The notes beneath the pieces were generated by a model that was not told the DNA's origin, did not search any database, and saw only the letters and a program-made list of their open reading frames with translations. A DNA stretch of 64,000 bases, taken from NCBI GenBank assembly GCA_963769025.1, contig CAVYKI010000006.1, forward strand, positions 480,001 through 544,000, given 5' to 3'. Each line of letters starts with the position of its first letter. Position 1 is the stretch's first letter. This document shows positions 17,021 through 34,996 of the stretch, piece by piece. The DNA is from an uncultured Verrucomicrobiae bacterium. Its GTDB lineage: Bacteria > Verrucomicrobiota > Verrucomicrobiia > Chthoniobacterales > Chthoniobacteraceae. The position numbers and the translations under genes were made by a program.

Positions 17021-18656
17021 TCAGACGTGCTTCGACATCCGCTCGGCGAGGCGGCCCAAGGCGGCGGAGTGATCGAGCGGGTCGAGTCGCACGTCGAGCA
17101 GGCAGTAGCTTTCCGTGTGCTTCGCCGCTGCAACCAGCGCGGCATCGAGCTGCGCTTCCGTCTCGACGAGGAATGCGCGGCCGGCACCGAGCAACTCGGG
17201 CAGCTTGTGGTAATTCCACACGAGCACGTCGTTGAACGGGCCTTCGTGGATGTGCCGCTCGGTGCCGTAGCCGGCGTTGTTGAGCACGATCACCACGGGG
17301 TTCAGTTTCTGAGCGCACGATCGACGAGAGCTCCATGCCGGTCATCTGGAACGCGCCGTCGCCCACGAGCACCAGCGGCCGCAGTTCTGGCCGCGCCATC
17401 TGCGCACCGAGCGCCGCCGGTACCGCAAAACCCATCGAGGCGTAGTAGGCCGGTCCGAGGAATTCCGTGCGCTTGTGGATGGAAAGGTCGATCGCGCCAA
17501 AGAGCGCGTTGCCGACATCGGCGATGACGATCGTGTCGTCGCCGATGAATCCGTTCAGTCGCTCGAAAAGCCGCGCAACGGTCACCGGAGCGTCAGGCTT
17601 GGGGACGAATTCCTGCGGCTGCGGCGGTGTCGGGCGCGGCCCCGTCTCGCGTTTCCGCAGATCCGCGGCGATGAGGCCGCGGAGGAAATCCTTGAAGCGC
17701 ACATTTTCGAACATGTGATGGCGGATGGAGAGCTTCTCGCTCGTCGCGTAGATGCTTTTGCCCAGGTCGAGCTGCGCGGTGTAGATGCCGAGATTGATGT
17801 CCGTCATGAAGACGCCGAGCAGGATCACGCAATCGCTGGATTCCACGTATCGCTGCACGTCCTGCCGCCCCATCGCACCTTCGTACAAACCGATGTAGAG
17901 CGGGTGCTGCTCGCTGATCACCGACTTGCCGAGAATGGTGGCCGCAACCGGGATGTTGGTTTGTTCGATGAACTTCAGGAGCTCGTTCTGCAGGCCGAAC
18001 CGGTGGATTTCCACGTCGGCTAGAACCACGGGCTGCTTCGCGGCGTTGATCATGCCCGCGGCCTCCTGCAGCGCCTCCGCGAGCGCGAGCGGTTCGCTCG
18101 CCTCGTGGATCTCCGGCGTGCGATGGTGGGCGAGCCCCGGCACGCTCACGAGGTCGCGGGGAAGTTCAAGATAGACCGGCCGCTTGTACCGCAGCGCGGC
18201 ATGAAGCACGCGGTCGATTTCTGCCATCGCGGTATTCGGATCGCTGAGCACCGCGGAAGCGACCGTGATCTGCTCGAAGACCCGCTTCTGCGTGTCGAAG
18301 TCGCGGACCTTATGGTGAAGGAGCGGATTCTTGTCGCGCTCGCTCATCCCCGGCGCACCGCTGATCACGACCACCGGCGATTTCTCCGCAAAGGCACCCG
18401 CCACGGGGTTCACAACCTTCAACCCGCCGACGCAATACGTGATGCACGCCACGCCCAGCCCGGCGACGCGCGCATATGCATCCGCGGCAAAGCCGGCGCC
18501 CTGCTCGTCGCATGTCGTCACGATTTTGATCCGGCTGGATTTGAGCTGTTCGTAAAAGCCGAGCACGTAGTCGCCCGGGATGCCGAAGACATGACGCACG
18601 CCATGTGCGTAAAGCCGTTGAATCAGATATTCGCCGATCTCGGTGCCTCGATTCAT
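17021..18656 (-). CDS. TPP-dependent alpha-keto acid decarboxylase (IpdC/PDC family), apparent +1 frameshift at ~17312
   Basis: FGIPGDY, DEQGAGFAADAYAR, LLHH, GDGAFQMT; the VLNNAGYGTE C-terminus is in ORF 17021..17296. Confidence 0.88.
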
Positions 18657-18708
18657 GCCCGACATTAACTTCGAAGCGAACGGATTGCGAATGCTAACCG
18701 CCCGGAAG

Positions 18709-19827
18709 TCAGCGGAATTTGCGTCGCGCCGGGCCGGTGTAGAGGGAGCGGGGCCGGATGAGGTGATTGTGGTCATGCTGCTCGATCACGTGGGCGCACC
18801 AGCCGGCGATCCGGGAGCAGGCAAAAATGGAGGGATTCAGCGCGGCCGGAATGCCCATCAGCCGGAACACCACCGCGGCGTACAGATCGACGTTCGCGCA
18901 GAGACCTTTCTCGCGCTGCATGACCTCTTCCAGCTTTTCGCAGACGGGCACCCATTGCGGCTCGCCGGCGCGCTCGGAGAGCTGGCGCGCGAGGTCGCGC
19001 ATCACCGGCACGCGCGAATCGCCCGTCTTGTACACCCGGTGCCCGAATCCCATGATCTTCACCTTTCGCGAAAGCCTGTCCTTCACCCACGTCTCCACGC
19101 GGCCGGCTTCGCCGATTTCTTCCAGCATTTGCATGGACTCCTCGTTGGCGCCGCCGTGGAGCGGCCCCTTCAGGGTTCCGATGCCGGTGGTCGCGGCGGA
19201 GTAAATGTCCGAGAGCGTCGAGGCAGTGACGCGCGCCGAGAAGGTCGAGGCGTTGAACTCGTGATCGGCGTAGAGGATGAGCACCGTGTCGAAAATGCGC
19301 GTCTGCCAGATTTCCGGCGGCTTGCCGGTGAGCGTGAGGAGAAAGTTGCCCGCATGCGTGCGTGTCGGATCTGACTGCACGGGGTCATGACCTTCGCGGA
19401 TCCGCCAGCCGTCGGTGATGAGCGCGGAAAGCCTCGCGATCAGCCGGACGGCCTTCCGGAGATTCGCATCGTGCGAGCCATCATTCAGCGCGGGATCGAA
19501 AGCGGCGAGCATCGAGACGCCGGTGCGCAGCACGTCCATCGGATGCGCGTCGCGCGGAAAGAGCGCGAGCATTTCCAGCACCGACTTTGGCAGCGAGCGA
19601 TTGAGCGCGAGATCGTGCGTGAAGCCCGCCAACTGCTCCGGACCGGGCAATTCCCCGTGCAGGAGCAGCCATGCTATCTCCTCAAAGCTGCTCCCGCCTG
19701 CGAGCTCGTGAATGTCGTAGCCTCGGTAGAGCAGGCCGGCGTTGGGATCCACCCAGCAGATGGCGGATTCTCCGGCGATGACCCCGGCGAGCCCGGGGCT
19801 GTAGGCGGGTTTCGTTTCGTCACTCAT
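18709..19827 (-). CDS. prpC: 2-methylcitrate synthase / citrate synthase
   Basis: DHEFNASTF, GPLHGGANE, GFGHRVYK, NVDLY; coupled to prpB and prpD. Confidence 0.88.
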   Translation of the reverse strand: MSDETKPAYSPGLAGVIAGESAICWVDPNAGLLYRGYDIHELAGGSSFEEIAWLLLHGELPGPEQLAGFTHDLALNRSLPKSVLEMLALFPRDAHPMDVLRTGVSMLAAFDPALNDGSHDANLRKAVRLIARLSALITDGWRIREGHDPVQSDPTRTHAGNFLLTLTGKPPEIWQTRIFDTVLILYADHEFNASTFSARVTASTLSDIYSAATTGIGTLKGPLHGGANEESMQMLEEIGEAGRVETWVKDRLSRKVKIMGFGHRVYKTGDSRVPVMRDLARQLSERAGEPQWVPVCEKLEEVMQREKGLCANVDLYAAVVFRLMGIPAALNPSIFACSRIAGWCAHVIEQHDHNHLIRPRSLYTGPARRKFR

Positions 19828-20699
19828 GGTTGGGTACCTCCGCGGGGAAAATCGTCCCGTTTCGGGTCGTAGCCAAGCAGTTCGTACAGGTCCGCGCGCG
19901 TTAGCATTTTGCTGAGCCACGGCCGTTGCGAGCCGCTCCGTTTCAAGTCACGCAGGCATTCGGCCTCGGTGTGCATCGCGGCGCGGAAGGCGGTGACGGG
20001 AAAGAGCACCATCCGGTATCCCATCGCCGCAAGCTGGCGGATGCTCAGCAGCGGGCTGCGGCCAAACTCCGTCATGTTTGCCATCAGCGGCGCGCGCACG
20101 CGGCGTGCGAATTCCCGGAACTCGCGCGCACTCTCCAGCGCCTCGGGAAAAATCGCATCCGCCCCGGCTGCGAGATACGCCTGGGCCCGCTGTACCGCGG
20201 CATCGAAGCCCTCCACCGCGCGCGCATCGGTGCGCGCGACGATGAGAAAATCCGGATCGGTCCTCGCACGGATCGCCGCGCTGATTTTTTTGCAGAATGC
20301 GTTCACCGGCACGACTTCCTTGCCAGCGAGATGCCCGCAGCGCTTCGGAAAGACCTGATCCTCGAGGTGCATCCCGGCCAGTCCGGCGCGCTCGAATTCC
20401 CTCACTGCGCGCGCGGTTTCGCGGAGCCCGCCGAAGCCCGTATCCGCATCGACGAGCGCCGGAATCTTCACCGCACGCGCGATGTAGCCCGCAAGCTGTG
20501 CCACCTCGCCGAGCGTGAGCAGACCGGTGTCGGGCACGCCGGCGGTCGCGTTCGCCAGCCCCGCGCCGCTCACGTAAACGGCGGAAAAGCCGGCGCGTTC
20601 GATCAGCTTCGCCGTGGCCGCATTGAAAGCGCCAGGCATCGCCACGCACTCTTTGCGGATCATTCGCCGGAGCACCGTCGTTTTGCGGAGGGCTGTCAT
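19824..20699 (-). CDS. prpB: Methylisocitrate lyase
   Basis: KRCGH motif (isocitrate lyase has KKCGH), DADTGFG, ARTDA, ANMTEFG. Confidence 0.93.
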   Translation of the reverse strand: MTALRKTTVLRRMIRKECVAMPGAFNAATAKLIERAGFSAVYVSGAGLANATAGVPDTGLLTLGEVAQLAGYIARAVKIPALVDADTGFGGLRETARAVREFERAGLAGMHLEDQVFPKRCGHLAGKEVVPVNAFCKKISAAIRARTDPDFLIVARTDARAVEGFDAAVQRAQAYLAAGADAIFPEALESAREFREFARRVRAPLMANMTEFGRSPLLSIRQLAAMGYRMVLFPVTAFRAAMHTEAECLRDLKRSGSQRPWLSKMLTRADLYELLGYDPKRDDFPRGGTQP

Positions 20700-22054
20700 G
20701 GGAGTTCGGTGAGGGGCAACAGGTCGCGCACGGATTCCATCGTATCGAGCCTCCAGATGCCGTGCAGCAATTCAGCAGCGCGCTCCGCGCCGAGTCTGGG
20801 CCCGGCGAGCGTGCGAAACTTTGCCTCGACCTCGGCATCACTCAACGGCGCACGCGAATGTCCCGGCGGATCGTCCACGCGCTCGGTCAGCAGGCGGCCA
20901 TCGCGAAGGTGGACGCTCACGATATTGCCCACCCGCCCGGGATACTGCGCGCTCAGTTCCGGATCGCGCTCGACTTTCACCCGCTGGACGAGCGCGAGCA
21001 GCGCCGCGTCGGTGAAGCGCTCCCGCGCAAATTGCCGCTCGGTCACTTCACCGTCGGCGAGCGCAACGGCGACGATGTAGGGCAGGCTGTGATCCGCCGT
21101 CTCGCGGCTGGTCGGGCGCCACTGCGCCGGGCTCCCGCCGATGATCTCCACCGCCGCGTCGTGGCTGCGCACGAGCACCGACTCGATCTGCGCCGGATCG
21201 TCGATCTGCGTCCGGAGCTTCAGTGCCGCCGCGATCGCGCTCTGCGAATGGTACTCGGCGGGCCAGAACTTGATGCTCGTCCGCAGAATCATGAAGTCCC
21301 GCCAGTCTTCAACATCGAGCGCGAGCGGTTGTCCGGCGACGAGTTTCTCAAAACCAAACCCGCCTTCAAAGATCGGCGCCGGTCCGCTCATCCCCTCGCG
21401 CGCCAGCAGCGCCGCGAAGACACCGCGCCGCGCCGCATGCGCGACGGTGCATGCCTTCCAATGCGAAAGCTCGCCGATGCGCGACTGGCGCAGCGACCCG
21501 CTCGATACTCCCGCGATGTTCACCGCCTGTTCCATGCGCGCGGCATCGAGCCGCATGAGATGCGCCGCGGCGAGCGTGCTGGAAAATGCGACGTACGTCA
21601 CATGGTCCCACCCGCGTGCGCGCAGGCTGGCCGCGTCGCAAAGCCGGCATTGGATTTCATACGCAAGCGCGACGGCCGTGATCAGTTCTCGCCCGGATGC
21701 GCCTTCGGTCTCCGCCACCGCGAGCGCCGCCGCGATGTTGTCGCTCGGGTGCGCCGGCTCCTTCGAGAGATATGTGTCGTTGAAATCGAGATACCGCACG
21801 AGGCAGCCGTTCGCGAAAGCCGCCCAGTCCGGCGACACCCGCAGCGACGTGCCGAGCATCGTCGCGCCGCGCTCCGTCGGAAATCGCCCGGCCGTCCGTC
21901 GCGCGATCGCGCACGGTTCCGCGTCCCAGGCGCCGAACGCGCATCCGACTGAATCAATGATCCTCCTTTTGACCTCATGCACCACCGGCGCCGGCAGCGC
22001 CTCGAAGCGGAGGCCGGCCGCAAAGTCCGCGAGCCGTTGGGCGAGCGTGCGCAT
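20696..22054 (-). CDS. prpD: 2-methylcitrate dehydratase, MmgE/PrpD family
   Basis: VRYLDFNDTY, HPSDN, SHWKA, ETADHSLPY. Confidence 0.92.
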   Translation of the reverse strand: MRTLAQRLADFAAGLRFEALPAPVVHEVKRRIIDSVGCAFGAWDAEPCAIARRTAGRFPTERGATMLGTSLRVSPDWAAFANGCLVRYLDFNDTYLSKEPAHPSDNIAAALAVAETEGASGRELITAVALAYEIQCRLCDAASLRARGWDHVTYVAFSSTLAAAHLMRLDAARMEQAVNIAGVSSGSLRQSRIGELSHWKACTVAHAARRGVFAALLAREGMSGPAPIFEGGFGFEKLVAGQPLALDVEDWRDFMILRTSIKFWPAEYHSQSAIAAALKLRTQIDDPAQIESVLVRSHDAAVEIIGGSPAQWRPTSRETADHSLPYIVAVALADGEVTERQFARERFTDAALLALVQRVKVERDPELSAQYPGRVGNIVSVHLRDGRLLTERVDDPPGHSRAPLSDAEVEAKFRTLAGPRLGAERAAELLHGIWRLDTMESVRDLLPLTELP

Positions 22055-22089
22055 TGCGAAGTGTGACGACGAAGCCTAGGTTGGCGTGC

Positions 22090-23658
22090 ATGAGCGGGCA
22101 AGAACCAGTCTGCTTCAACTTCGCCGCCGACGTGATGGAACGCTGGGCGGTAATGACTCCGCGCGCCCCGGCGCTGTGGTGCGTGGACGAAAGCGGCGGT
22201 CCCGGGCAGCGGTTCACCTTTGCGCAGCTTGCGGACCAGTTTCGCCGGGCGGCTCATTTTTTTCACACGGCCGGCGTGCGGCGCGGCGATCGTGTGCTCG
22301 TCATGCTCCCGCGTGTGCCGCAGTGGTGGGTCGCGATGCTCGGGCTCACGAAGCTCGGCGCAGTGCCGATTCCCGGCACAATGCTGCTCACCGAGAAAGA
22401 CATCCTCTACCGCATCCAGGCGGCGGAGGTCGCCGCCGTGATCACGTGCGGGGAGATCGCGGACCGGGTCGGCGACTTTTCAGGCATCAAAATCCTCGCC
22501 GGCGGCGAGTGCGCGGGATGGCTGAACTTTTTCGCGGGAATCCGCGACGCGGACGATGATTTCGATCCCGGGCCGACGCGTGCGGACGAGCCGGGTATCC
22601 TCTATTTCACCAGCGGGACGACGGGGGCGCCGAAGATGGTGCTGCACACGCAGGCGAGCTACGGCCTCGGCCATCGCGTGACGGGCGAGCAGTGGCTCTG
22701 GTCCAAGCCGGACGACATCCACTGGAACCTCGCGGACAACGGCTGGGCCAAGGCTGCGTGGTCGAGCCTGTTCGGGCCATGGCACATGGGCGCGTGCATT
22801 TTCACCGTGGATTCCCGCGGGAAATTCGACGCCGGCGCGGCGCTGCGGACGCTCGCGCGTTATCCGATCACGACATGGTGCGCGCCGCCGACCGCGCTGC
22901 GGCTGATCGTGCGCGAGGATCTTTCCGGATATCGCTTCCCCCATCTGCGCCACTGCGTGAGCGCGGGGGAGCCGCTCAATCCCGAGGTGATCGAAACGTG
23001 GAAGCGCGCGACCGGGCTCACCATTTACGAAGGCTACGGCCAGACGGAGAGCGTGGTGATGATCGCCAATTGTCGCGCGCGCGGCGACGTGGTGAATCCC
23101 GGCTCGATGGGAAGGCCCGTGCCGGGCTTCGAGATCGCATTGCTCGACGACGAACTGCGCGAACTGCCGTCCGGTGTGGAAGGCGAAGTGGCCGTGCGCA
23201 TCGCACCGCGCCGCCCGCTGGGGCTCTTCCGCGAATACTGGCGCAACCCGGAGGAGAACGCCGCGCGCTTTCGCGGCGACTGGTACCTCACCGGCGACCG
23301 TGCCACGCGCGACGAGGAGGGCTGCTACTGGTTCGTCGGCCGCACGGATGATGTGATCAAGAGCGCCGGCTATCGCATCGGGCCTTTCGAGGTGGAGAGC
23401 GTCCTCATCGAACACCCGGCCGTGCTCGAAGCAGCCGTTGTCGCCAAAGCCGACGCCACGCGCGGCGCGATCGTCAAAGCGTTCGTGGTGCTGCGCAAGG
23501 ATCGCGAGCCGAGTGACGCCCTGAAGACGGAATTGCAGGAACACTGCAAACGCGCGACGGCCCCTTACAAGTATCCGCGTGAGATCGAATTCCTCGCCGA
23601 GTTGCCCAAGACGATCAGCGGAAAAATCCGGCGCCTGGAACTGCGGCGACGCGGGTGA
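22090..23658 (+). CDS. Short/medium-chain acyl-CoA synthetase (ACSM-like)
   Basis: YFTSGTTGAPKMVLH, YEGYGQTE, GYRIGPFEVES, PKTISGK. Confidence 0.92.
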   Translation: MSGQEPVCFNFAADVMERWAVMTPRAPALWCVDESGGPGQRFTFAQLADQFRRAAHFFHTAGVRRGDRVLVMLPRVPQWWVAMLGLTKLGAVPIPGTMLLTEKDILYRIQAAEVAAVITCGEIADRVGDFSGIKILAGGECAGWLNFFAGIRDADDDFDPGPTRADEPGILYFTSGTTGAPKMVLHTQASYGLGHRVTGEQWLWSKPDDIHWNLADNGWAKAAWSSLFGPWHMGACIFTVDSRGKFDAGAALRTLARYPITTWCAPPTALRLIVREDLSGYRFPHLRHCVSAGEPLNPEVIETWKRATGLTIYEGYGQTESVVMIANCRARGDVVNPGSMGRPVPGFEIALLDDELRELPSGVEGEVAVRIAPRRPLGLFREYWRNPEENAARFRGDWYLTGDRATRDEEGCYWFVGRTDDVIKSAGYRIGPFEVESVLIEHPAVLEAAVVAKADATRGAIVKAFVVLRKDREPSDALKTELQEHCKRATAPYKYPREIEFLAELPKTISGKIRRLELRRRG

Positions 23659-23664
23659 CCGGCC

Positions 23665-25695
23665 ATGAAGACGTTCGACCTTGGGGGCGAGATCGTCTGG
23701 CGACCGACCGCGGATTGGATCGAGCGCAGCAACCTCCGCCGGTTCATGGACGCGCACGGCATCGCGTCGCCCGAAGAATTGCAGCGCCGGTCCACGGACG
23801 ACATCGCGTGGTTTTGGGACGCGGTGTTGCGCGATCTGGGTATCGAGTTTCACACGCCATATTCGCAAGTCGTGGACCTCTCTCGCGGCATCGCGTTGCC
23901 GCGATGGTGCGTAGGCGGCGGGATGAACATCGTCCACAACTGCCTCGACAAATACGCCGGCACACCGACTGACGGGCGCGTCGCGCTGCGGTGGGAAGGC
24001 GAGGAAGGCGCGGTGCGCACGCTCACTTATGCGGAGCTGCGGGGCGAGGTGAACCAGGCGGGGAATGCGCTGCGCTCGCTGGGGCTGGGCAAGGGTGATG
24101 TCGTCGGCGTCTTCATGCCGATGACGCCGGAGTGCGTCGTGGCGATGCTCGCGATCATCAAGATTGGCGCGATTTTCCTGCCGCTCTTCTCCGGCTACGG
24201 CGCGCAGGCTGTCGCTTCGCGACTCGTGGATGCCGAGGCGAAAGCGCTCTTCACGGCCGACGGCATGTGGCGCCGGGGTAAGCTCGTGCCGATGAAGCCG
24301 GTGGCCGACGCCGCAGCCGCACAAGTTCCTACGCTCCGGCACCTGATCGTGCACAAACGGACGGGCTGCGACGTGGCGTGGAATCCGGCGAGCGATCATT
24401 GGTGGCATGAGGTGATCGGGAGGCAATCGCACGATGCGGAAACCGAACGCACAAACGCGGAGGACGTGCTCATGCTCATCTACACCTCGGGCACGACGGG
24501 GAAGCCGAAGGGCACGGTGCACACGCACTGCGGCTTTCCCATCAAAGCCGCGCAGGACATGTCACACGGGCTCGACCTGCACGCCGATGAGACGCTCTTC
24601 TGGGTCACCGACATGGGCTGGATGATGGGGCCGTGGCTCGTCTTCGGCACGCTCCTGCTCGGTGCGACGATGATGATCTGCGACGGCGCGCCGGATTTTC
24701 CGGGCCCGGACCGGCTCTGGTCGCTGGTCGCGCGGCATGGCGTGACCTCGCTCGGCATCTCCCCGACGCTCGTCCGCGCGCTGCTCCGCCACGGCGACGC
24801 GCCGGTGCGTGCGCACGACCTTTCGTCACTGCGGAAATTCGCCTCGACCGGCGAGCCGTGGAACCCCGCGCCGTGGATGTGGCTTTTCCAAAATGTCGGC
24901 GGCGGCATGCGGCCGATCGTCAACTACTCCGGCGGCACCGAGATTTCCGGCGGCATCCTGATGGGCAACGTGCTCACTCCGCTGAAGCCGTGCGCCTTTT
25001 CCGGCCCGCTGCCCGGCATGGCTGCGGATGTCGTGAACGAACGCGGCGAGTCCGTCCGCGGCGAGGTCGGCGAACTGGTTATCCGTCAGCCGTGGATCGG
25101 GATGACGCGCGGATTTTGGCGCGACCCGGAGCGCTATCTCGAAACGTATTGGTCGCGCTTCCCGGACGTGTGGGTCCATGGCGACTGGGCGGCGATCGAT
25201 GATGACGGCCTGTGGTTCATCGTTGGCCGCTCCGACGACACGATCAAAATCGCCGGCAAGCGCGTCGGGCCTGCGGAGGTCGAGTCCGTGCTCGTCGCGC
25301 ACGACGCCGTGAGCGAAGCCGCGGCGATCGGTGTGCCGGATGAGTTGAAAGGCGAGGCGCTCGTCTGCTTTTGCGTGCTGAAGCCGGGCCACGAGCCGGG
25401 CGATGCGCTCCGGGAGGCACTGCGCGCGGCCATCGTCGGCGCCCTCGGAAAACCGCTCGCGCCACGCGAGGTGCTGTTCGTCCGCGACCTTCCGAGAACG
25501 CGGAACGCAAAAATCATGCGCCGCGTCATCCGCGCTGCGCATCTGGGTCTGGATCCCGGCGACATTTCATCGCTCGAGAATCCGGCCGCTGTGGAGGCGA
25601 TCCGGCGGTCGGAATCCAGTCATCACGCTGAGACGCCGCGTGAACCGGAGCCGCGAGTGAACGACGAGGCGGAGGGAAAGCGCGCGGGCAAGTGA
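23665..25695 (+). CDS. Acetate/propionate-CoA ligase family AMP-binding protein
   Basis: IYTSGTTGKPKG, WVTDMGWMMG, NYSGGTE, PRTRNAKIMRR. Confidence 0.9.
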   Translation: MKTFDLGGEIVWRPTADWIERSNLRRFMDAHGIASPEELQRRSTDDIAWFWDAVLRDLGIEFHTPYSQVVDLSRGIALPRWCVGGGMNIVHNCLDKYAGTPTDGRVALRWEGEEGAVRTLTYAELRGEVNQAGNALRSLGLGKGDVVGVFMPMTPECVVAMLAIIKIGAIFLPLFSGYGAQAVASRLVDAEAKALFTADGMWRRGKLVPMKPVADAAAAQVPTLRHLIVHKRTGCDVAWNPASDHWWHEVIGRQSHDAETERTNAEDVLMLIYTSGTTGKPKGTVHTHCGFPIKAAQDMSHGLDLHADETLFWVTDMGWMMGPWLVFGTLLLGATMMICDGAPDFPGPDRLWSLVARHGVTSLGISPTLVRALLRHGDAPVRAHDLSSLRKFASTGEPWNPAPWMWLFQNVGGGMRPIVNYSGGTEISGGILMGNVLTPLKPCAFSGPLPGMAADVVNERGESVRGEVGELVIRQPWIGMTRGFWRDPERYLETYWSRFPDVWVHGDWAAIDDDGLWFIVGRSDDTIKIAGKRVGPAEVESVLVAHDAVSEAAAIGVPDELKGEALVCFCVLKPGHEPGDALREALRAAIVGALGKPLAPREVLFVRDLPRTRNAKIMRRVIRAAHLGLDPGDISSLENPAAVEAIRRSESSHHAETPREPEPRVNDEAEGKRAGK

Positions 25696-25758
25696 CGTTG
25701 CTCCGCCGGGGATCGGCTCCGAGGTTGCACGGCGGGACGATCCGAACCACAATAAGGC

Positions 25759-27473: not shown

Positions 27474-29238
27474 GCGCGCACGGATTCCAGCAGCACGAAA
27501 AGGAAATCCACGACGCGGAAGAGTTGCTCTTCACCGGTCCGCAACGGTTCGGCGTCGCCAAGGGCCTCTTCCTCGGCCGCTTCGTCGCGGATTGGGTGCT
27601 GCCCTACCCCGCGATGCCTGCCGAACAGAGCAAGGCACTCGATGTCGATGCTGCCGGAACTGCGCCGGTTTCTCGACGAGAAGCTCGATCCGGCGGCCAT
27701 CGACCGGAATGCGGACATCCCGCGCGAGGTCATCGAAGGTCTCGGACGGTTGGGCGTGCTCGGAATGACGGCGCCGGTGGAGTTTGGCGGGCGCGGCATT
27801 TTCGCAGATGGCGAACGGTCGCGTGCTCGAGGAAATCGGATCCCGGTGCGCCTCGACGTCGGTGTTCGTGAATGCGCATCACTCCATCGGCATCCGCGCG
27901 CTGCTGCTCTTTGGCACGCCGGAGCAAAAGCGACGCTGGCTGCCGCCACTCACCAGCGGCAGGCAGCTCGCCGCGTTTGCGCTCACCGAACCCGAGGCCG
28001 GGTCCGACGCGGCGAATGTCCAGACGCGCGCCGACCTGAGTGCGGACGGCACTCACTACATCTTGAACGGCCAGAAGCGCTACATCACCAACGCCGCCAT
28101 CGCGCAGGTGCTTACCGTCATGGCCCGCACGAAGGTTCCCGGCAGCGAACAGACGGCGGTGACCGCGTTCCTCGTCACACCGGACATGCCGGGCTTTTCC
28201 GTCGTCGAGCCGCGCATGGAAAAGCTCGGCATCCGCGGCACCGCCACGGGGCGGCTGGAGTTCCGCGACATGCGCGTGCCGCGCGAGAATATCCTCGGTG
28301 CGCCCGGCAAAGGGCTGAAGGTCGCGCTCAGCGTGCTCGACTTTGGCCGCACGACATTCGGCGCCTGCTGCACCGGTGCGGCGAAGACATGTCTGCGGCT
28401 CGCCACGCAGCACGCGAGGACGCGGCGGCAGTTTGGCCACCCGCTCGGCGACTTTGAGCTGATCAAAAAGAAAATCGCGCGCATGGCCGCGAGCGCCTAC
28501 GCGATGGAGGCGATGACGACCGTCACCGCGTCCATCATCGACAGGGGGCTTGAGGATTACATGATCGAGACGGCGATGCTGAAGGTCTTCACGACGGAGG
28601 CGCTGTGGCAGATCGTCAACGACGCGTTTCAGATTCACGGCGGGCCCGCCTACTTCACCGACCTGCCGCTCGAACGCATGCTGCGCGATGCGCGGATCAA
28701 TCACATCGGCGAAGGAGCGAATGAAGTCCTCACGTCCTTCATCGCGCTGGTCGGGATGCGTGGGCCGGGGATGCAGCTCAAGGAAATCTGGGACGCCATG
28801 CATCATCCGATCGGCCACCTCCGCAAGGCGTGGCTCGCGGGCTGGGATCGCGCCGGGGCTGCGTTGCACGCGCCCGACGTGCCCGTCCGCACCGATGGGC
28901 TTCGCAGGCACGCGCAGCAGCTTGGCCGGCTCATCTGGCGGTTCAACCTTGCCGTGGATCGAGCGCTCATCCGCTACCGCGAGGGAATCCTCGATCGGCA
29001 GTACGTTCAGGAGCGGATTGCAAACGCGGCGATGGAACTTTTCGCCTCGGCGTGCGTCCTCAGCCGGCGCGATGCCGAATGGCAGGCGGGGATCATGCAT
29101 CACGATGCCGCTGCCGGGCTTTTTCTGCGCGAATCCGCACGCCGGGTGCGCCGGTGCCTCGCCGGACTGCGCGACAACGACGACGAGGCGGTCACCGCAG
29201 CCGCTGATGCAGCTCTGCGGCACGACGGCGAGACGTAG
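27470..29238 (+). CDS. Acyl-CoA dehydrogenase (VLCAD/ACAD9-like length), two apparent +1 frameshifts (~27645, ~27795)
   Basis: AFALTEPEAGSDA, NGQKRYITN, RRQFG, QIHGG, RDARINHIGEGANE; N-terminus spread over three frames. Confidence 0.88.
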
Positions 29239-29248
29239 GAGGTGCGCG

Positions 29249-30886
29249 ATGGCGCCCAGTTACAGCCACGGCGTTTCCACAAAGCCGCTCATCGGCAAAA
29301 CGATCGGCGCGATGCTGGATGATGTCGCGGGGGAGTTCTGTGCGAATGAAGCGCTGGTCTCGGTGTTCGAGAATCGGCGACTCACCTACGCGCAGTTGCG
29401 CGGCGAAGCGGACCGCTGCTCGCGGGCGCTGATGGCCATCGGAGTCGGAAAAGGCGACCGCATCGGGCTATGGTCCACGAACTGCGCGGCGTGGGTGATC
29501 GTGCAATTTGCGACTGCGAAAGCCGGGGCAGTCCTCGTGAACATCAATCCCGCGTACCGCGCATCGGAGCTCGAATACACGCTCAACCAATCCGAGGCGA
29601 CCTGCCTGATCATCGGTGAAGGTTTCAAGGACACCTGCTACGCGGACATGCTGGCGAAGCTGCGCAGCAGGCTGCCGCATCTGCGTAAGGTGATTTCACT
29701 GGTGCCGAAAACGGGGCTGACGGAATGGGACGGGTTTCTGGCCGGCGCGGAGTGCGTCGAACCGGATGCGCTGGCTGATCGGGAGGCGTCGCTCGATTGC
29801 GATGACGTCATCAACGTGCAGTACACCTCGGGCACGACCGGCTTTCCGAAGGGCGCGATGCTCACGCATCACAACATCCTCAACAACGGCTTCTGGGTCG
29901 GCGAGCGGATGCGACTGACGCGTCTTGATCGGCTCTGCATCCCGGTGCCGTTCTACCACTGCTTCGGCATGGTCCTCGCGAATCTCGCTTGCGTGACCCA
30001 TGGCGCGACCATGGTCCTGCCAGCCCCGCACTTCTCGCCCATCCACACGCTTGAAGCGGTCGCGCGCGAGCGCTGCACGGCGCTGCACGGCGTGCCGACG
30101 ATGTTCATCGCCGAACTCGATCATCCGCGATTCCGCGAGTTCGATTTGTCGACGCTCCGCACGGGCATCATGGCCGGCGCGCCGTGCCCGATCGAGGTGA
30201 TGAAGCGAGTGATGAGCGAGATGCACATGGCCGAGATCACCATCGCGTGCGGGATGACCGAGACCTCGCCGGTTTGCAACATGACGGAGGTGGACGACCC
30301 GATCGAAGTGCGCACCGGCACCGTGGGCAAGGTCATGCCGCATCAGGAGCAAAAAATCATCGACCCCGAGACGGGCCGCATTCTCCCGCGCGGCGAGCCG
30401 GGCGAACTCTGCTACCGCGGCTATCAGGTTATGCGCGGCTACCTGAACAACCCCGATGGCACCCGCCAGACGATCGACGAGGCGGGCTGGCTGCACGGCG
30501 GCGATCTCGCCGTGATGGACGAGCACGGTTACGTGCGCATGACCGGCCGTCTCAAGGACATGATCTGCCGCGGCGGGGAGAAGATCTTCCCGCGCGAGGT
30601 GGAGGAATTCCTCTTTGCGCACCCGAAAATCGCCGAGGCATACGTGGTCGGCGTGCCCGACGCGTACTACGGCGAGCAGGTCGTAGCATGGGTGAAAGCG
30701 AAGGACGGTCAGACGCTGACAGCGGAGGAAGTGACCGCCTTCTGCCGCGGGCAAATCATGGATTACAAGATCCCCACCCACGTAAAATTCGTGAGCGAAT
30801 TTCCGACGACGGTGACCGGCAAGATCCAGAAATACAAAATGCGCGAGGAGAGCGCCCGGGAACTCGGTCTCACACCGACGGCCTGA
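29249..30886 (+). CDS. Fatty acyl-CoA synthetase (ACSF2-like AMP-binding protein)
   Basis: AGGAGG RBS; YTSGTTGFPKG, PFYHCFGMV, GMTETSP, TVTGKIQK. Confidence 0.92.
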   Translation: MAPSYSHGVSTKPLIGKTIGAMLDDVAGEFCANEALVSVFENRRLTYAQLRGEADRCSRALMAIGVGKGDRIGLWSTNCAAWVIVQFATAKAGAVLVNINPAYRASELEYTLNQSEATCLIIGEGFKDTCYADMLAKLRSRLPHLRKVISLVPKTGLTEWDGFLAGAECVEPDALADREASLDCDDVINVQYTSGTTGFPKGAMLTHHNILNNGFWVGERMRLTRLDRLCIPVPFYHCFGMVLANLACVTHGATMVLPAPHFSPIHTLEAVARERCTALHGVPTMFIAELDHPRFREFDLSTLRTGIMAGAPCPIEVMKRVMSEMHMAEITIACGMTETSPVCNMTEVDDPIEVRTGTVGKVMPHQEQKIIDPETGRILPRGEPGELCYRGYQVMRGYLNNPDGTRQTIDEAGWLHGGDLAVMDEHGYVRMTGRLKDMICRGGEKIFPREVEEFLFAHPKIAEAYVVGVPDAYYGEQVVAWVKAKDGQTLTAEEVTAFCRGQIMDYKIPTHVKFVSEFPTTVTGKIQKYKMREESARELGLTPTA

Positions 30887-32630
30887 ATTTACCGACCAGT
30901 TCGGACAACCGTCCGGTGATCTGGCCGAGCGAGCAGTGTTCGACGGTTTTGATCAGTTCGGCGAAGACGTTGCCGCCGCTCTCGACCACGCACGCAAGGG
31001 CGTCGAGGGCGCGACCGGATTTCGCGGCGTTGCGCCGTTTGAATTTCCGCAGGCGATCGACCTGAAGCTGCTTCTTGTTGCGTGGCGTGCGGACGACCTT
31101 CGGTTCCGCGAGCTGGTCGGCCGGGGTGACGTAGCGATTGAGGCCGATGATGGGGCGGGTGCCGTCGGCGATCTGCTGTTCGTAGCGGTGCGCGGCAGCC
31201 TGGATTTGCGCCCGCTGATAGCGCAGCTCGACGGCTGGGAGGACGCCGCCGAGACGATTGAGCGTGCGGAATTCGTCGAGGATCGCGCGTTCGACGGCCT
31301 GCTCGACGAGTTGCATCCCCGGCGAGCCGCCGAAGAGATTTGTCATGTGCCGGAAGAGGCCGGTCTCCTCAAGCAGGATGGACTGCGCGTGCGCGGCGAG
31401 GCGGACGTATTCCTCGCCGGGCGTGGTGAACGGTTCGTCGGCGCTGTTGCTGTGGCAGGAGTTGGTGGCGTTGATGTACGCGAGCAGCAGCTCGACTGCC
31501 GTGCGCGTCAGGTTGTTCTTGAACTCGTGGGCGATGAGCGAGCGTCCGCTGGTCTGCGTGTGGAGCCTGAAGAGCTGAGCGCGCTCGCCGGCGCCGAAGA
31601 CGTCGCGCATCCCGATGGCCCAGATCTTCCGGCAGACGCGGGCGAGCGCGAGGTATTCGATGTCGAGACCGCAATCGAGGAAGAACGAGAGCCGCGGGCC
31701 GAAGCGATCGACATCGAGCCCGCGCGCGCGGAAGAGTTCGACGTAGGCGAAGCCGTTGGAAAGCGTGTAGGCGGCCTGCTGCACGGGCGTCGCGCCGGCT
31801 TCGGCGATGTGGTAGCCGCTGATCGAAATGGGATACCAGCGCGGCATGTGCGCCGTGGTGTATTCGACCATGTCGGTGAGGAAGCGCAGCGAGGCTTCGA
31901 GCGGAAAGATGATTTCGTTCTGCGCCTGCACCTCCTTCAAAATGTCGGCCTGGATGGTGCCGCGCAGCTTGGCGGCGATGCGCGGCCCGAAGCGGCGCCG
32001 GGCGGCGGCGACATACATCGCGAGGATGATCGGCGCCGGGCCGTTGATCGTCATCGAGGCGGAGAAATGCGCGTCGCCGAGGGGAAAGCGGGCGAACAGG
32101 CGCTCCATGTCGTCGATCGTGTCGATGGCCACGCCGCCTTCGCCGATCTTGCCGAAGACTCCGTCGGCGTCGCTGTCGAGCCCGTAGAGCGTCGGCCCGT
32201 CGAATGCGGTGCTGAGGCGGAGTGAACGCTGATGTTTCGTGAGGAAATGGAAGCGCGCATTTGTGTCCTCCGCGAGCCCGAGGCCGGCGAAGAGGCGGGT
32301 CGGTTCCTCGGATGTGCGGTCGGCCGATGCGCCCGAACCGCTGTGATACGTCTCCGGGTAGATCGCATTCGTGAACGGGAATTTGCCGGGCAATCCTTCG
32401 CCGAAAAGAACGCGGGCGATCTCGCCGGGCTCATCGCCGGCGGGCAGGGCGGCTGCCGGAAGCTCAAGACCTGTCGGTGTGCGCACCGTGCGGATGCCCT
32501 TGCGGATTGTCTTCCATTGGCGGCGCAATTTTCCGCCGAAAACAGCGTCCTCGCGGGCGCGGTGCACCTGAGCGGACACGAAGCGCGCATGCGCCTCGAC
32601 ACTCTCGCAGACGCGGGCCAGGGCGCTCAT
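30870..32630 (-). CDS. Acyl-CoA mutase substrate-binding subunit (IcmF C-terminal-like, isobutyryl-CoA mutase type)
   Basis: RLFAG, RLSTAFD, SMTINGPAP, GTIQADILKEVQAQN, ISISGYHIAEAG, HTQTSGRSL; no B12-binding domain. Confidence 0.88.
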   Translation of the reverse strand: MSALARVCESVEAHARFVSAQVHRAREDAVFGGKLRRQWKTIRKGIRTVRTPTGLELPAAALPAGDEPGEIARVLFGEGLPGKFPFTNAIYPETYHSGSGASADRTSEEPTRLFAGLGLAEDTNARFHFLTKHQRSLRLSTAFDGPTLYGLDSDADGVFGKIGEGGVAIDTIDDMERLFARFPLGDAHFSASMTINGPAPIILAMYVAAARRRFGPRIAAKLRGTIQADILKEVQAQNEIIFPLEASLRFLTDMVEYTTAHMPRWYPISISGYHIAEAGATPVQQAAYTLSNGFAYVELFRARGLDVDRFGPRLSFFLDCGLDIEYLALARVCRKIWAIGMRDVFGAGERAQLFRLHTQTSGRSLIAHEFKNNLTRTAVELLLAYINATNSCHSNSADEPFTTPGEEYVRLAAHAQSILLEETGLFRHMTNLFGGSPGMQLVEQAVERAILDEFRTLNRLGGVLPAVELRYQRAQIQAAAHRYEQQIADGTRPIIGLNRYVTPADQLAEPKVVRTPRNKKQLQVDRLRKFKRRNAAKSGRALDALACVVESGGNVFAELIKTVEHCSLGQITGRLSELVGKFRPSV

Positions 32631-33697
32631 GCGCTCACCTCCTCGAAAAGCCGATCCACGCCGGTGTCGCGATGCCGTTTGGCGACGGTGGCGATGACGC
32701 GCTGGCCGCGCCCGTTTGCCGCAAGCCGCGCTCCGATCTCCGCGACGGCGGTCGCGGCACCGGCGAGGTCGCCTTTGTTCACGACGACGATGTCCGCGGC
32801 GTCGAGCATCACGATCTTCTGGAGTTGGAGGCGGCTGCCGTAGTCTGAGCCCATGACGAAGAGCGACTTGTCCACGAGTCCGCGACGGAACGGGAGCGCT
32901 TCCTGCCCAATGCCGACCGTCTCGACGAAAATCACATCGAACCCGCCGTGTTTCATCGCCCGCAACCAGCGCGCGCTTTCCAGCGAAAGACCGCCGGCGC
33001 GACCGCGCGTGGCGAGGCTGTGCATGAAGACGCGGTCGTCCTGCGAATGGATCATCGTCGCGCGGTCGCCGAGCAGCGCGCCTTTGCCGGTGATGCTCGG
33101 ATCGTGGGAGAGAATGGCGATGCGCGCTTCGGGGCGCGCCTTCAGCCAGCGCAGCACGAGTTCGTCGATGAGCGTGGATTTTCCCGCACCGCCGGCACCG
33201 GCGATGCCGACGACGGTGGGGCGACGACGGGGGCGCATTTTCGGAGTGCTCCAGCCATCGAGCGTTGGGCGTTGGACCTTGGACGTTCGACGTTTTGCCC
33301 GGCCGTATCGCTCGCGCACGAAGGCCACGATCGCCGTGAGCGGTTCACCGGCGAAGAAGATCCGGTCCACGCCCTTGCGTCCCAAGATCGCGGCGTCCGC
33401 TTTCGTGATGGTTCCGCCGCCGCCACCGAAGACGCCGATGTGAGAGGCGCGCAGCATTTTCAGAAGGGAGACGACCTCGGTGAAGAAGTCGACGTGCCCG
33501 CCATTGTAGCTGGAGATGCCGATGGCGCGGACGTTTTCCTGGACGGCCGCCCGGACGATGTCGCGCGCCGAGCGATGGTAGCCGAGGTAGACGACCTCGA
33601 TGCCGTGCCGGATGAACTCAAGATTGATCGTATTGATCGCGCTGTCGTGCCCGTCGCAAATCGGCACTGCGGTGAGTAGGCGGATGGGTTCGGCCAT
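32627..33697 (-). CDS. Cobalamin-binding domain fused to MeaB-like GTPase (IcmF N-terminal half)
   Basis: DGHD B12 motif, SSYNGGH, FGGGGG; Walker A GAGGAGKS, DPS, ALLGDR, ETVGIGQ, NKGD. Confidence 0.88.
   Translation of the reverse strand: MAEPIRLLTAVPICDGHDSAINTINLEFIRHGIEVVYLGYHRSARDIVRAAVQENVRAIGISSYNGGHVDFFTEVVSLLKMLRASHIGVFGGGGGTITKADAAILGRKGVDRIFFAGEPLTAIVAFVRERYGRAKRRTSKVQRPTLDGWSTPKMRPRRRPTVVGIAGAGGAGKSTLIDELVLRWLKARPEARIAILSHDPSITGKGALLGDRATMIHSQDDRVFMHSLATRGRAGGLSLESARWLRAMKHGGFDVIFVETVGIGQEALPFRRGLVDKSLFVMGSDYGSRLQLQKIVMLDAADIVVVNKGDLAGAATAVAEIGARLAANGRGQRVIATVAKRHRDTGVDRLFEEVSA
33257..33294. repeat. Degenerate 7-nt tandem repeat (TTGGACG-like, about 5 units) inside the Cbl-GTPase linker
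   Basis: tcgagcg ttgggcg ttggacc ttggacg ttcgacg; encodes KRRTSKVQRPTLD. Confidence 0.7.
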
Positions 33698-33754
33698 TGG
33701 AGAATCTCCCGGCGCCAGCGTAATGCGAAACGGAGTGCGGGGCAACGCGCCGCT

Positions 33755-34996
33755 TTATGCGGCTTCCCAAATCATCACGACCGTCGTGGTCACGCTGCCG
33801 CCGATGTTGCAGGTGAGGAAGCGCTTTGCCCCCTCGATCTGCCGCGCGCCAGCCGTGCCGGTGAGATGCTGATACGCTTCGACGACCTGCCTCACGCCGG
33901 TGGCGCCGACAGGGTGGCCCTCGCCGAGCAGGCCGCCGCCGGCATTGACGGGAAGATTTCGGATTCCGGATTCCGGATTCCGGATTTGGACAAACTCACG
34001 GACGGTGGGAAGCGAAGTCGCGCCGCTCTCGAGCAGCGCCGCGCCTTTTCCCGGCGCTGCGAGGCCGAGCAATTCATATTGGACGATCTCGGAAATCGAA
34101 AAGCAGTCATGCACTTCAGCGCCGTGAATGTCGCCCGGACCGATGCCAGCCATCGCGTAGGCATGGGCCGATGCCATGGCGGCGATGGGAAAATCAGGGA
34201 GTTCCTTCCGATCGAGCGCGAGATGGTCCGTCGTGTGGCCAAAGCCGAGCAGGCGTGCCGTGCGCCGTGCGGCGTGCGTGCGGAAATAGCGCTCCGAACA
34301 AAGCACAAGTGCGGCGGCACCGTCGGTGATTTGCGAGCAGTCGCTCAGCTTGAGGGGTGGTGCGATGATCGGGTTTTCCACACCCGCAGCGGATGCCTCC
34401 CCGAAGGTCAGCGCCGTCTCGCGCGTTTGCGCGAGAGGATTCAGGCGTGCGTGAGCGCGATTTTTTACGGCGACCGTTGCGAGCTGTGCTTCCGTCAATC
34501 CGTGGCGCTCCGCATACCGCAGCGCGATGCGGGCGAAGAGCTTCGGAAACAGGAAGTCTCCATACTGCGCCCGCTCTTCCACGTAATGGGCGGCGGCACC
34601 GAGCACGTCGGCACCTTCCGCAGGGGACATGGTCTTTTGCTGTTCGGCGCCGACGACGAGAACGACATCGTGAAGGCCGCCCATGATCTGTTGCGCACCG
34701 GCGAGCACGGCAACGCCCCCGGAGGCGCATGCCGCCTCGACATGCATGGTGGGAAGTCCGCGTATCGCCGGATTGATCTCCGTCAGGAACGCGCCGAGAT
34801 GGAGCTGTCGGGTGAAGAGGCCGGCGGCAAAATTGCCGACGACGCCAGCCTCGATGTCAGCCGGTGCGATCCGCGCATCCGCAATTGCCACGTGTCCCGC
34901 CTCGATGATCAGATCCCCGAGCGCCAAACCTTCCTTGCGGAGGTTTCTCCGGAAGTCAGTCCGCCCCGCACCCAGGATGAAGACAGGCTCGGCCAT
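33755..34996 (-). CDS. Acetyl-CoA acetyltransferase, SCP2-type thiolase (catalytically intact)
   Basis: EAACASGG, TDGAAA, HDCF, GHPVGATG, NIGGS. Confidence 0.92.
   Translation of the reverse strand: MAEPVFILGAGRTDFRRNLRKEGLALGDLIIEAGHVAIADARIAPADIEAGVVGNFAAGLFTRQLHLGAFLTEINPAIRGLPTMHVEAACASGGVAVLAGAQQIMGGLHDVVLVVGAEQQKTMSPAEGADVLGAAAHYVEERAQYGDFLFPKLFARIALRYAERHGLTEAQLATVAVKNRAHARLNPLAQTRETALTFGEASAAGVENPIIAPPLKLSDCSQITDGAAALVLCSERYFRTHAARRTARLLGFGHTTDHLALDRKELPDFPIAAMASAHAYAMAGIGPGDIHGAEVHDCFSISEIVQYELLGLAAPGKGAALLESGATSLPTVREFVQIRNPESGIRNLPVNAGGGLLGEGHPVGATGVRQVVEAYQHLTGTAGARQIEGAKRFLTCNIGGSVTTTVVMIWEAA
33954..33990. repeat. 7-nt tandem repeat (GGATTCC, 5 units incl. 2 variants) inside the thiolase
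   Basis: agatttc ggattcc ggattcc ggattcc ggatttg; encodes QIRNPESGIRNL. Confidence 0.85.

Follow-up and report, generated by a model that had tools for sequence, protein, structure and literature searches.

A probable accessory island for short- and branched-chain carboxylate breakdown, with a two-piece IcmF-type mutase and a cysteine-less thiolase-fold protein, in an uncultured Verrucomicrobiae bacterium

The B12-dependent mutase IcmF interconverts isobutyryl-CoA with n-butyryl-CoA and isovaleryl-CoA with pivalyl-CoA in reversible reactions, and the field of G-protein chaperones treats it as the single fused exception (PMC10481361). Methylmalonyl-CoA mutase (MCM) carries Tyr and Arg at the specificity positions of such enzymes (PMC7238569). 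A route independent of the branched-chain keto-acid dehydrogenase (BCKDH), leading from a keto-acid decarboxylase through an aldehyde dehydrogenase (ALDH) to the ligase MbcS, is a working model for S. aureus (PMC11167679). Finally, thiolase-fold aldolases carry their catalytic tyrosine in the motif YDHF (Ltp2) or YDCY (Sal), and Sal has a glycine in place of the nucleophilic cysteine (PMC12329534). Here we describe an acyl-CoA locus of about 18 kb. It lies at positions 17021-34996 of a 64,000-nucleotide stretch of DNA (the window) from an uncultured Verrucomicrobiae bacterium, corresponding to C6:480001-544000 of a 5.34-Mb, 13-contig assembly with a completeness of 83% (genome G000).

On balance, and with modest confidence, we read the locus as an accessory, horizontally mobile island serving the breakdown of short and branched carboxylates (isobutyrate, 2-methylbutyrate, butyrate, propionate, acetate and similar acids) as well as of branched-chain 2-oxo acids. 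Its three CoA ligases would activate the free acids. Branched 2-oxo acids would be converted to aldehydes by a decarboxylase dependent on thiamine diphosphate (ThDP), oxidized to acids by an ALDH, encoded inside the locus in two relatives and elsewhere in this genome, and then ligated to CoA. A two-piece IcmF-type mutase would turn isobutyryl-CoA into n-butyryl-CoA, which would enter ordinary β-oxidation through the acyl-CoA dehydrogenase (ACAD) of the locus and FadB and FadA encoded elsewhere. The SCP2-type thiolase would cleave 2-methyl-branched and odd-chain units, such as those derived from 2-methylbutyryl-CoA, to acetyl-CoA and propionyl-CoA, and PrpC, the PrpD-like protein and PrpB would dispose of the propionyl-CoA. 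We infer the substrates, the direction of the mutase and the co-expression of the genes. The observations behind this scheme are the identities of the genes, the specificity residues of the mutase, the conservation of the block, and the linkage of mutases of the isobutyryl-CoA mutase (ICM) type with prp, BCKDH and β-oxidation genes in other phyla.

Pfam and NCBIfam scans of long open reading frames (ORFs), combined with manual reading of frames and starts, place 13 genes in three packed blocks (Table 1). Block 1, on the minus strand, consists of the genes for the PrpD-like protein, PrpB, PrpC and the ThDP decarboxylase. Block 2, on the plus strand, encodes a ligase, a ligase resembling acetyl-CoA synthetase (ACS), a thiolase-fold protein, a DUF35 protein, the ACAD and a further ligase. 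Block 3, again on the minus strand, encodes the SCP2-type thiolase, a B12-binding protein with a MeaB-type domain and the substrate subunit of the mutase. The initial annotation of the window had proposed these three blocks from the letters alone, and their coordinates and gene list were borne out. Within blocks the genes abut or overlap, with ATGA overlaps at 20696-20699, 27009-27012, 27470-27473 and 32627-32630; blocks 2 and 3 converge with a 17-nt overlap. The divergent starts of the prpD-like gene and ligase 1, where blocks 1 and 2 meet, are separated by 35 bp (22055-22089), so that either the promoters must extend into coding sequence or the mRNAs have almost no leader. GC content is about 64% across the whole window, with no contrast at the locus, and an Rfam scan of the window at gathering scores returned only a tRNA and no riboswitch or other RNA.

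Table 1. Features of the acyl-CoA locus and its flanking tRNA gene, in window coordinates
Feature	Position	Strand	Supporting evidence
ThDP-dependent 2-oxo-acid decarboxylase (IPDC/PPDC/KdcA group)	17021..18659	-	Pfam TPP_enzyme_N/M/C, C domain cut at residue 489; stop 17021-17023
PrpC, 2-methylcitrate synthase/citrate synthase II	18709..19920	-	PF00285 E 1.5e-127; TIGR01800 448.8 bits, above cut-off 421.3
PrpB, methylisocitrate lyase	19824..20699	-	TIGR02317 373.5 bits, above cut-off 354.4; PF13714
MmgE/PrpD-family protein, presumed 2-methylcitrate dehydratase	20696..22054	-	PF03972 and PF19305
Ligase 1, short/medium-chain acyl-CoA ligase (ACSM/MACS/MbcS family)	22090..23658	+	PF00501 and PF13193
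Ligase 2, acetyl-/propionyl-CoA-synthetase-like	23665..25695	+	ACAS_N, AMP-binding and AMP-binding_C
Cysteine-less SCP2-thiolase-fold protein	25759..27012	+	PRK06365 648.9 bits vs cut-off 695; EGGGATGG and HDAY
DUF35 protein (zinc ribbon and OB fold)	27009..27473	+	PF12172 and PF01796; CKKC...CMGC
Long VLCAD/Bacillus-FadE-like ACAD	27470..29238	+	ACAD N, M, C and ACAD9/ACADV C domains over three frames
Ligase 3, fatty-acid CoA ligase family (PRK12583 type)	29249..30886	+	PRK12583 818.9 bits vs cut-off 832; GGAGG upstream of start
Mutase substrate-binding (large) subunit, isobutyryl-CoA-mutase type	30870..32630	-	PF01642 E 8.6e-112; IcmF profile positions 523-1074
B12-binding and MeaB-type G-protein chaperone fusion (the N-terminal two domains of IcmF as a protein of their own)	32627..33697	-	PF02310 and PF03308 (E 4.7e-33)
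SCP2-type thiolase, catalytic motifs intact	33755..34996	-	PRK06289 370.8 bits vs cut-off 375; AACASGG and HDCF (alignment to 4bi9 and family alignment A1)
tRNA-Ser(CGA), flank, 3' end facing the right locus edge, outside the pathway	35266..35355	-	Rfam RF00005 61.1 bits; ARAGORN

The substrate subunit of the mutase finds its best PDB match in IcmF (4xc6, E 7e-120), and its Phe114, Ala142 and Gln237 align with the Phe, Ala and Gln of that enzyme, where 2-hydroxyisobutyryl-CoA mutase has Ile and Asp. Judged by these specificity residues, the mutase is of the isobutyryl-CoA type. The smaller protein has the features of a MeaB-type G-protein joined to a B12 domain: the B12 motif DGHDSA, a P-loop GAGGAGKS at residue 183 and NKGD at residue 323 of its 372-residue ORF. 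Neither piece reaches the 1500-bit cut-off of the IcmF model NF045497 (520.5 bits for the substrate subunit, 261.4 bits for the B12-binding and MeaB protein). The initial annotation had brought in IcmF; the mutase is not the fused enzyme, as there are two ORFs and the split is conserved in relatives, and the ICM-type Phe and Gln are kept. The same two separate frames occur in a congener (G015) and in a genome of another family of the order (G089), and the 120 top-scoring database relatives of the small protein measure 340-503 residues and all combine PF02310 with PF03308; those with names belong to Chthoniobacter, Chthoniobacterales, Terrimicrobiaceae and Verrucomicrobia. Across the order, 43 of 151 genomes encode the B12-binding and MeaB protein, always as a separate frame of about 280-680 residues (mostly about 380-430) and never as a fused protein of about 1,000; by family, the counts are 14/15 in f6, 12/15 in f7, 15/15 in f14, 1/8 in f5 and 0/15 in the bacterium's own family. 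The two-protein split is genuine.

This is the sole PF01642 mutase found in the assembly, and no methylmalonate-semialdehyde dehydrogenase (MMSDH) scores above the cut-off in it (best 286.2 vs 448.5 bits). With a single mutase of ICM type and no MMSDH, neither the methylmalonyl-CoA route nor the canonical end of valine breakdown was found, at a completeness of 83%.

The two thiolase-fold proteins listed in the initial annotation are both present and prove unlike each other: the SCP2-type thiolase of block 3 is catalytic by its motifs, whereas its counterpart in block 2 lacks both catalytic cysteines. In the latter, alignment to 6esq and BbsB puts a glycine at the nucleophile position, and the GHP histidine and the NPSGG asparagine are kept. 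The absence of both cysteines means that this protein cannot carry out thiolysis by the canonical cysteine mechanism. Its EGGGATGG and HDAY motifs are invariant in family alignments A1 and A2. We collected 80 loci from contigs of one genome per species, 61 with homologues at 55% identity or more and 19 at 32-38%. The cysteine-less motifs occur in all 61 wherever the columns can be read, and 15 of the 19 distant homologues retain both cysteine motifs (xxCASxx and HDCF). The cysteine-less family, at 55-74% identity, extends over Verrucomicrobia, Thermoplasmata, Nitrospira, Scalindua, Acidobacteria, Chloroflexi, Deltaproteobacteria and Pedobacter. DUF35 proteins are the usual binding partners of SCP2-type thiolase-fold proteins, and a DUF35 gene comes next in 51 of the 61 loci.

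A retro-aldolase of the Ltp2 or Sal type was considered for the cysteine-less protein and rejected: HDAY has a histidine at its first position, and the catalytic tyrosine is absent. The literature searched, as far as its text was accessible, contained no characterized member of this thiolase-fold/DUF35 family. From its motifs and neighbours, the pair is probably a different C-C-bond or decarboxylation enzyme tied to the mutase branch, a role suggested by its position between IcmB and MeaB in Nitrospira operons. The retained oxyanion-hole residues may suit retro-aldol cleavage or decarboxylation; alternatively, the protein may act as a partner without catalysing a reaction itself. As an enzyme, the pair could be a retro-aldol lyase, splitting 3-hydroxy-2-methylacyl-CoA (or 3-hydroxyisobutyryl-CoA) into an aldehyde and propionyl-CoA, or else a decarboxylase of the (methyl/ethyl)malonyl-CoA type. 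Taken further, the pair would be a new C-C-bond enzyme of the ICM branch, and the island would carry out an 'aldolytic' β-oxidation of short branched acyl-CoAs that needs neither dehydrogenase nor thiolase, a proposal that we consider rather unlikely. It would explain the joint travel of ICM-type mutases, the cysteine-less pair and methylcitrate genes from Thermoplasmata-related families to Nitrospira and Verrucomicrobiota, the presence of three ligases, and a locus devoid of a hydroxyacyl-CoA dehydrogenase (HADH). An ALDH and the ACS-like ligase stand beside the cysteine-less gene in G015 and G089, and the ligase alone does so in two Chloroflexi loci; this adjacency is compatible with an aldehyde-releasing cleavage, and one might speculate that the two enzymes would recycle the released aldehyde.

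Linkage of these genes extends well beyond this genome. The mutase large subunit lies within 9 kb of the cysteine-less gene in 21 of the 61 loci, and a PrpD of the present type is found in 8 of the 61; all 20 of the readable mutases from these loci have Phe/Ala/Gln. The sole Tyr/Arg mutase adjoins a distant (35%) Halobacteriales homologue outside the 61-locus family. In a Nitrospira sp. (L054), the order is BCKDH E1α, E1β and E2, thiolase, HADH, IcmA, a metallo-β-lactamase (MBL)-fold protein, IcmB, cysteine-less thiolase, DUF35 and MeaB. A metagenome-assembled genome of the Nitrospiraceae (L051) continues with enoyl-CoA hydratase (ECH), prpD, prpB, prpC, a ligase and an ACAD, and in Scalindua (L050) the same core stands between prpB/prpD and lysine-fermentation genes. 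Such co-occurrence across phyla shows the combination to be a recurring one that is not confined to this genome; its distinctive feature here is entry by decarboxylase, ALDH and ligase in place of BCKDH. As for individual neighbours, in Candidatus Scalindua rubra (L050:11863-17441) the IcmA-IcmB-cysteine-less thiolase-DUF35 run is followed by HADH, a BKACE-family enzyme and genes for lysine 2,3- and 5,6-aminomutases, which gives this anammox bacterium a set of the lysine-fermentation type. The MBL-fold gene between IcmA and IcmB recurs in Nitrospira-type clusters (8/61 loci by clustering; L054:7752-8603, L051:2135-3037, L094:14403-15239) and has no counterpart in the window. The cysteine-less genes of Chloroflexi have only housekeeping genes around them (Asp23, NusB, TatC and a short-chain dehydrogenase/reductase, SDR).

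Ten further mutase neighbourhoods were fetched from the order. In four of them, all from family f14, prpD-prpB-prpC lies 3.4-7.8 kb downstream of a two-piece mutase, and the surroundings in one f14 genome (G122) comprise a short ACAD, an SCP2-type thiolase, an SDR and a fused ScoAB-type CoA transferase. The other six include G089, one with thiolase and mutase only, and four with no other locus genes near the mutase.

Among the enzymes of propionyl-CoA disposal, PrpB and PrpC both score above curated cut-offs, and their genes and the prpD-like gene are adjacent on one strand. The true start of prpC may lie downstream of 19920. The best PDB matches of the PrpD-like protein are 2-methylcitrate dehydratases (5mvi, 5mux and 1szq, E ~1e-38), followed by cis-aconitate decarboxylases (~1e-30), and its gene adjoins prpB and prpC here, in the four f14 genomes and in the Nitrospira and Scalindua loci. 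Only 50 nt separate prpC from the decarboxylase gene on the same strand. The G015 orthologue of the decarboxylase is a single open frame of 564 codons that scores 416.3 bits against TIGR03394 (indolepyruvate/phenylpyruvate decarboxylase), short of the cut-off of 554.5. Its best PDB match is phenylpyruvate decarboxylase (PPDC; 2nxw), followed by the keto-acid decarboxylases 6vgs, 9msa and 2vbf, all at 311-326 bits. By these scores, the enzyme is a family-level member of the broad IPDC/PPDC/KdcA/KivD group, with no readable substrate preference.

The three ligases would, by their family relationships, fit short-chain acids. For ligase 1, MbcS (NF047394) is the best-matching NCBIfam model, and its best PDB matches are ACSM2A (2wd9/2vze) and 3etc, at E ~1e-139. 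Ligase 2 scores 609.5 bits against the acetate-CoA ligase model PRK00174, whose cut-off is 657, and about 400 against PrpE models, whose cut-off is 955; a homologue 64-66% identical stands directly after the DUF35 gene in the two Chloroflexi loci mentioned above (L082 and L087). The ACAD resembles very-long-chain acyl-CoA dehydrogenase and FadE of Bacillus, and is intact in G015 (595 codons).

Conservation was followed through 41 relatives (24 congeners among the searches) and 151 genomes of the order. One of the 24 congeners, G015, has a close orthologue of the cysteine-less gene (93% amino-acid identity). There the block is preserved in full, colinear but in inverted orientation, at 81-88% DNA identity; the similarity ends at window positions 17031 and ~35043, and both flanks differ. 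The remainder of the G015 contig maps to five other contigs of this genome, which indicates that the block stayed together while its neighbourhood was reshuffled. Between the ACS-like ligase and the thiolase-fold gene, G015 has an additional ALDH gene (PF00171, E 2.4e-191). Its other insert is an amino-acid (aspartate-type) kinase (L013/L012, G015:C10:27122-28381). Beside the block in G015 lie genes for a patatin/cNMP protein, an AMP-binding protein, FadA, a FadB-type fusion of ECH and HADH, a second long ACAD and GDPD, and a matching β-oxidation cluster is present in our genome at C9:619574-628999. The initial annotation had held that the missing steps are either borrowed or replaced by non-standard chemistry. 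They appear to be mostly borrowed, given the ALDH inside the G015 and G089 loci and FadA, FadB and ACAD beside the G015 block and on C9 here; non-standard chemistry may still play a part, given that both catalytic cysteines are missing from the thiolase-like protein.

G089, from another family, carries blocks 2 and 3 at 73-92% amino-acid identity together with the same ALDH, an SDR and a paralogue of elongation factor G (EF-G). The EF-G paralogue (759 aa, L019:9422-11698) is inserted inside an otherwise colinear island. This island spans 20.7 kb at 62-67% GC in a contig of 51-59% GC and starts right after a tRNA-Ala; the copy is clearly a horizontally acquired island. The tRNA-Ala(CGC) lies at L018:16116-16191, and the GC fraction jumps from ~0.55 to ~0.64 exactly over the island. 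On its thiolase side, the island borders on the 3' end of a tRNA gene both in this genome and in G089, but the tRNA differs (Ser here, Ala in G089). No att-like direct repeat of the tRNA end was found at the left edge (best match 12 nt, E 0.04), and no integrase was found among the ORFs checked, which cover the locus and a few flanking genes. To the right of the tRNA in the window, a 1111-aa DUF7133/NPCBM/HEAT protein (36521-39856) and a DUF6807 protein (39891-41075) are unrelated to the acyl-CoA locus.

Within the bacterium's own family, the mutase and the cysteine-less thiolase are each found in 0 of 15 genomes, and this prpD type is found in 1 of 60, as a 36% paralogue only. The grouping of the genes is more than chance: a colinear block exists in G015, blocks 2 and 3 in G089, and the mutase with prpDBC in four genomes of a further family. 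The blocks do not form a universal unit. As we read the history, a native decarboxylase was joined in the lineage of G000 and G015 by an accessory acyl-CoA island that included the prp genes.

Two genes of the locus are broken in this assembly. One extra base at ~17313 breaks the decarboxylase frame, and the ACAD frame is broken at ~27648 and ~27795-27798 by two single-base insertions relative to the G015 gene. Four read sets hold at most 0.17 of the sampled words; contigs from two of them (X1 and X2) are identical, so that these are probably one data set filed twice. The read-set contigs are ~92-96% identical to the locus and thus stem from relatives and not from the same strain. They are one base shorter at 17313 (X1/X2 and, independently, X3) and at 27795 (X1/X2), and no contig bridges 27648. 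If the three frameshifts and the missing ALDH were real lesions, the locus would be decaying and its pathway non-functional in this genome. Three single-base breaks in two genes, an ALDH that is present in the G015 and G089 loci and absent from this one, and intact relatives at two of the three break sites would all fit such decay. Against it stands the state of the rest of the assembly. Of 85 frames supported by GC at third codon positions (GC3) on the 101-kb G015 contig, 69 had counterparts here at no less than 60% identity and 7 were marked as divided between frames; four of the seven are clear single genes in 2-4 pieces, on contigs C3, C9 and C6. Two loci for the E1α subunit of 2-oxo-acid dehydrogenases and one E2 gene are likewise in 2-4 frame pieces. 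In four 200-kb samples of this genome the median length of GC3-supported frames is 145-337 aa, compared with 420 aa in the G015 contig, and completeness is 83% despite only 13 contigs. Together this is the pattern of assembly indel errors, and the assembly as a whole seems to carry many of them. Since broken frames occur genome-wide, the decarboxylase and ACAD breaks are quite probably assembly indels, and decay of the pathway appears quite unlikely. Broken genes outside the locus (E1α, E2, a long ACAD and others) are at C3:1179119-1180024, C4:61692-62413, C4:64328-64857, C9:627078-627423 and C3:1239361-1239377.

Several observations weigh against a dedicated catabolic island. In the present assembly, frameshifts interrupt the decarboxylase and the ACAD, and the locus is free of an ALDH; should these frameshifts be genuine, neither the entry route nor the ACAD step would work in this bacterium. 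No hydratase was found among the locus genes. The PrpD-like protein stays under all three PrpD equivalog cut-offs (237/950, 186/575 and 158/458 bits), and decarboxylase and ALDH score about equally against aromatic enzymes (phenylpyruvate decarboxylase and phenylacetaldehyde dehydrogenase) and branched-chain ones. The complete three-block set was seen in G000 and G015 only, and the island contig of G089 has neither prpDBC nor a close decarboxylase. Four of the 15 other genomes of the family, from four other genera, have decarboxylase orthologues at 66-80% identity with no locus gene within 10-16 kb, and the f14 genomes have mutase and prp genes without block 2. These distributions, together with the rarity of mutase, cysteine-less thiolase and this prpD type in the family and the occurrence of blocks 2 and 3 without block 1 in G089, would also suit a composite neighbourhood. 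An acquired acyl-CoA island would then merely lie beside a native decarboxylase, and each block would have a purpose of its own, be it detoxification of propionate, general activation of short-chain acids or isomerization of butyrate and isobutyrate. We consider this possible, though unlikely, for the decarboxylase stays joined to prpC in both G000 and G015 although the flanks differ, and the combination of ICM-type mutases with the cysteine-less thiolase/DUF35 pair, ACADs and prp genes is seen again in several phyla. The neighbours of the decarboxylase in the four other genera give no substrate clue; two of the genera have a PAS histidine kinase with a sigma54 activator there, and one has a further ThDP enzyme. 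In G158 (L124:16121-18821) and G101 (L128:11160-12497) the orthologue is divergent from the PAS histidine kinase, which in G158 is followed by a sigma54-dependent response regulator; this is a possible dedicated regulator, and it is absent from the locus of the window.

The scores of the entry enzymes also bear on two other pathways. An aromatic route of the Ehrlich type, with decarboxylation of phenylpyruvate or indolepyruvate, an ALDH resembling phenylacetaldehyde dehydrogenase and activation by a ligase, would agree with the best NCBIfam and PDB matches of the decarboxylase and with the best model of the G015 ALDH (StyD, 595.7 bits). Every one of these scores is below its cut-off, however, and branched-chain keto-acid decarboxylases trail PPDC by no more than 15 bits, as betaine-aldehyde dehydrogenase trails StyD by no more than 8. 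There are no paa-type genes among the 13 locus genes, and such a route leaves the ICM-type mutase and the methylcitrate genes unexplained; it is extremely unlikely. An anabolic or salvage role, in which decarboxylase, ALDH, the MbcS-like ligase and the mutase would supply isobutyryl- and 2-methylbutyryl-CoA primers for iso and anteiso fatty acids, seems very doubtful. MbcS is the family that ligase 1 matches best (471.7 bits), the S. aureus model ties the same enzymes to branched fatty-acid synthesis (PMC11167679), and the mutase reaction is reversible (PMC10481361). Yet ligase 1 falls far under the 850 bits that the MbcS model requires, the locus showed no fab genes, and the ACAD, the catalytic thiolase, the methylcitrate genes and, in G015, fadA and fadB alongside are catabolic in function. 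The island for short and branched carboxylates and 2-oxo acids therefore remains our preferred reading. It retains the branched short-chain acyl route of the initial annotation, in agreement with the ICM residues, the single mutase, the lack of an MMSDH above the cut-off, the Nitrospira BCKDH linkage and prpB/prpC; the proposed bypass of BCKDH is not established. The genome contains two heterodimer-type E1α loci and three E2 genes, one operon being badly broken, and the searches did not discriminate BCKDH from pyruvate or acetoin dehydrogenase among them.

If the catabolic reading is true, these soil Verrucomicrobiota would break down valine and isobutyrate by B12-dependent isomerization to butyryl-CoA and not by the textbook methacrylyl-CoA route, and propionyl-CoA would go to the methylcitrate cycle. 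Gene linkage would extend the same to Nitrospira, anammox bacteria and others, and branched-acid turnover in soils and wetlands would be tied to cobalamin supply. The two-piece IcmF offers a natural experiment to the G-protein chaperone field, and the cysteine-less thiolase-fold/DUF35 family, embedded in icm operons, is a well-defined target for enzymology.

How does the locus compare with described systems? The individual chemistries are known, and the initial annotation's statement that the combination lacks a description needs qualification: the decarboxylase/ALDH/MbcS bypass has been published as a model, and the idea of such an entry route is therefore not novel. The grouping of the genes and a two-piece IcmF were both absent from the accessible text of the literature searched, and, relative to that text, what is new is the grouping, the two-piece IcmF and the cysteine-less partner. 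The S. aureus route uses the same three enzyme types; of these, G015 and G089 have at least the genes for the ALDH and the MbcS-family ligase close together. The S. aureus route differs in that its genes are scattered, its decarboxylase and ALDH have not yet been identified and its purpose is to provide lipid primers, whereas the genes described here are linked to catabolic ones. Compared with known methylcitrate gene sets, the PrpD-like member is distant, prpC is followed by a ThDP decarboxylase on the same strand, and no prpE, acnD/prpF or prpR is found among the locus genes. The likeness to tRNA-linked genomic islands lies in the tRNA flanks of G000 and G089 and, in G089 only, the GC jump; integrase and repeats, as described above, were not found.

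The cysteine-less protein and its DUF35 neighbour share fold and partner with the archaeal acetoacetyl-CoA thiolase 6esq and the benzoylsuccinyl-CoA thiolase BbsAB (7pxp), 6esq and BbsB being the best PDB matches. With Sal the protein has in common the glycine at the nucleophile position and a DUF35 partner. The mutase has the modules of IcmF from Cupriavidus metallidurans (4xc6; NF045497) in the same order: B12-binding domain, MeaB-type G-protein and substrate barrel. That enzyme is one polypeptide, whereas here two overlapping ORFs are cut in the linker. Matches to the IcmF profile cover positions 185-391 and 523-1074, which leaves ~130 linker positions unmatched; counted from their likely starts, the two proteins add up to 942 aa, compared with 1076 profile positions. 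The classical IcmA and IcmB with a separate MeaB, as in the Nitrospira loci, represent a third layout of the same modules.

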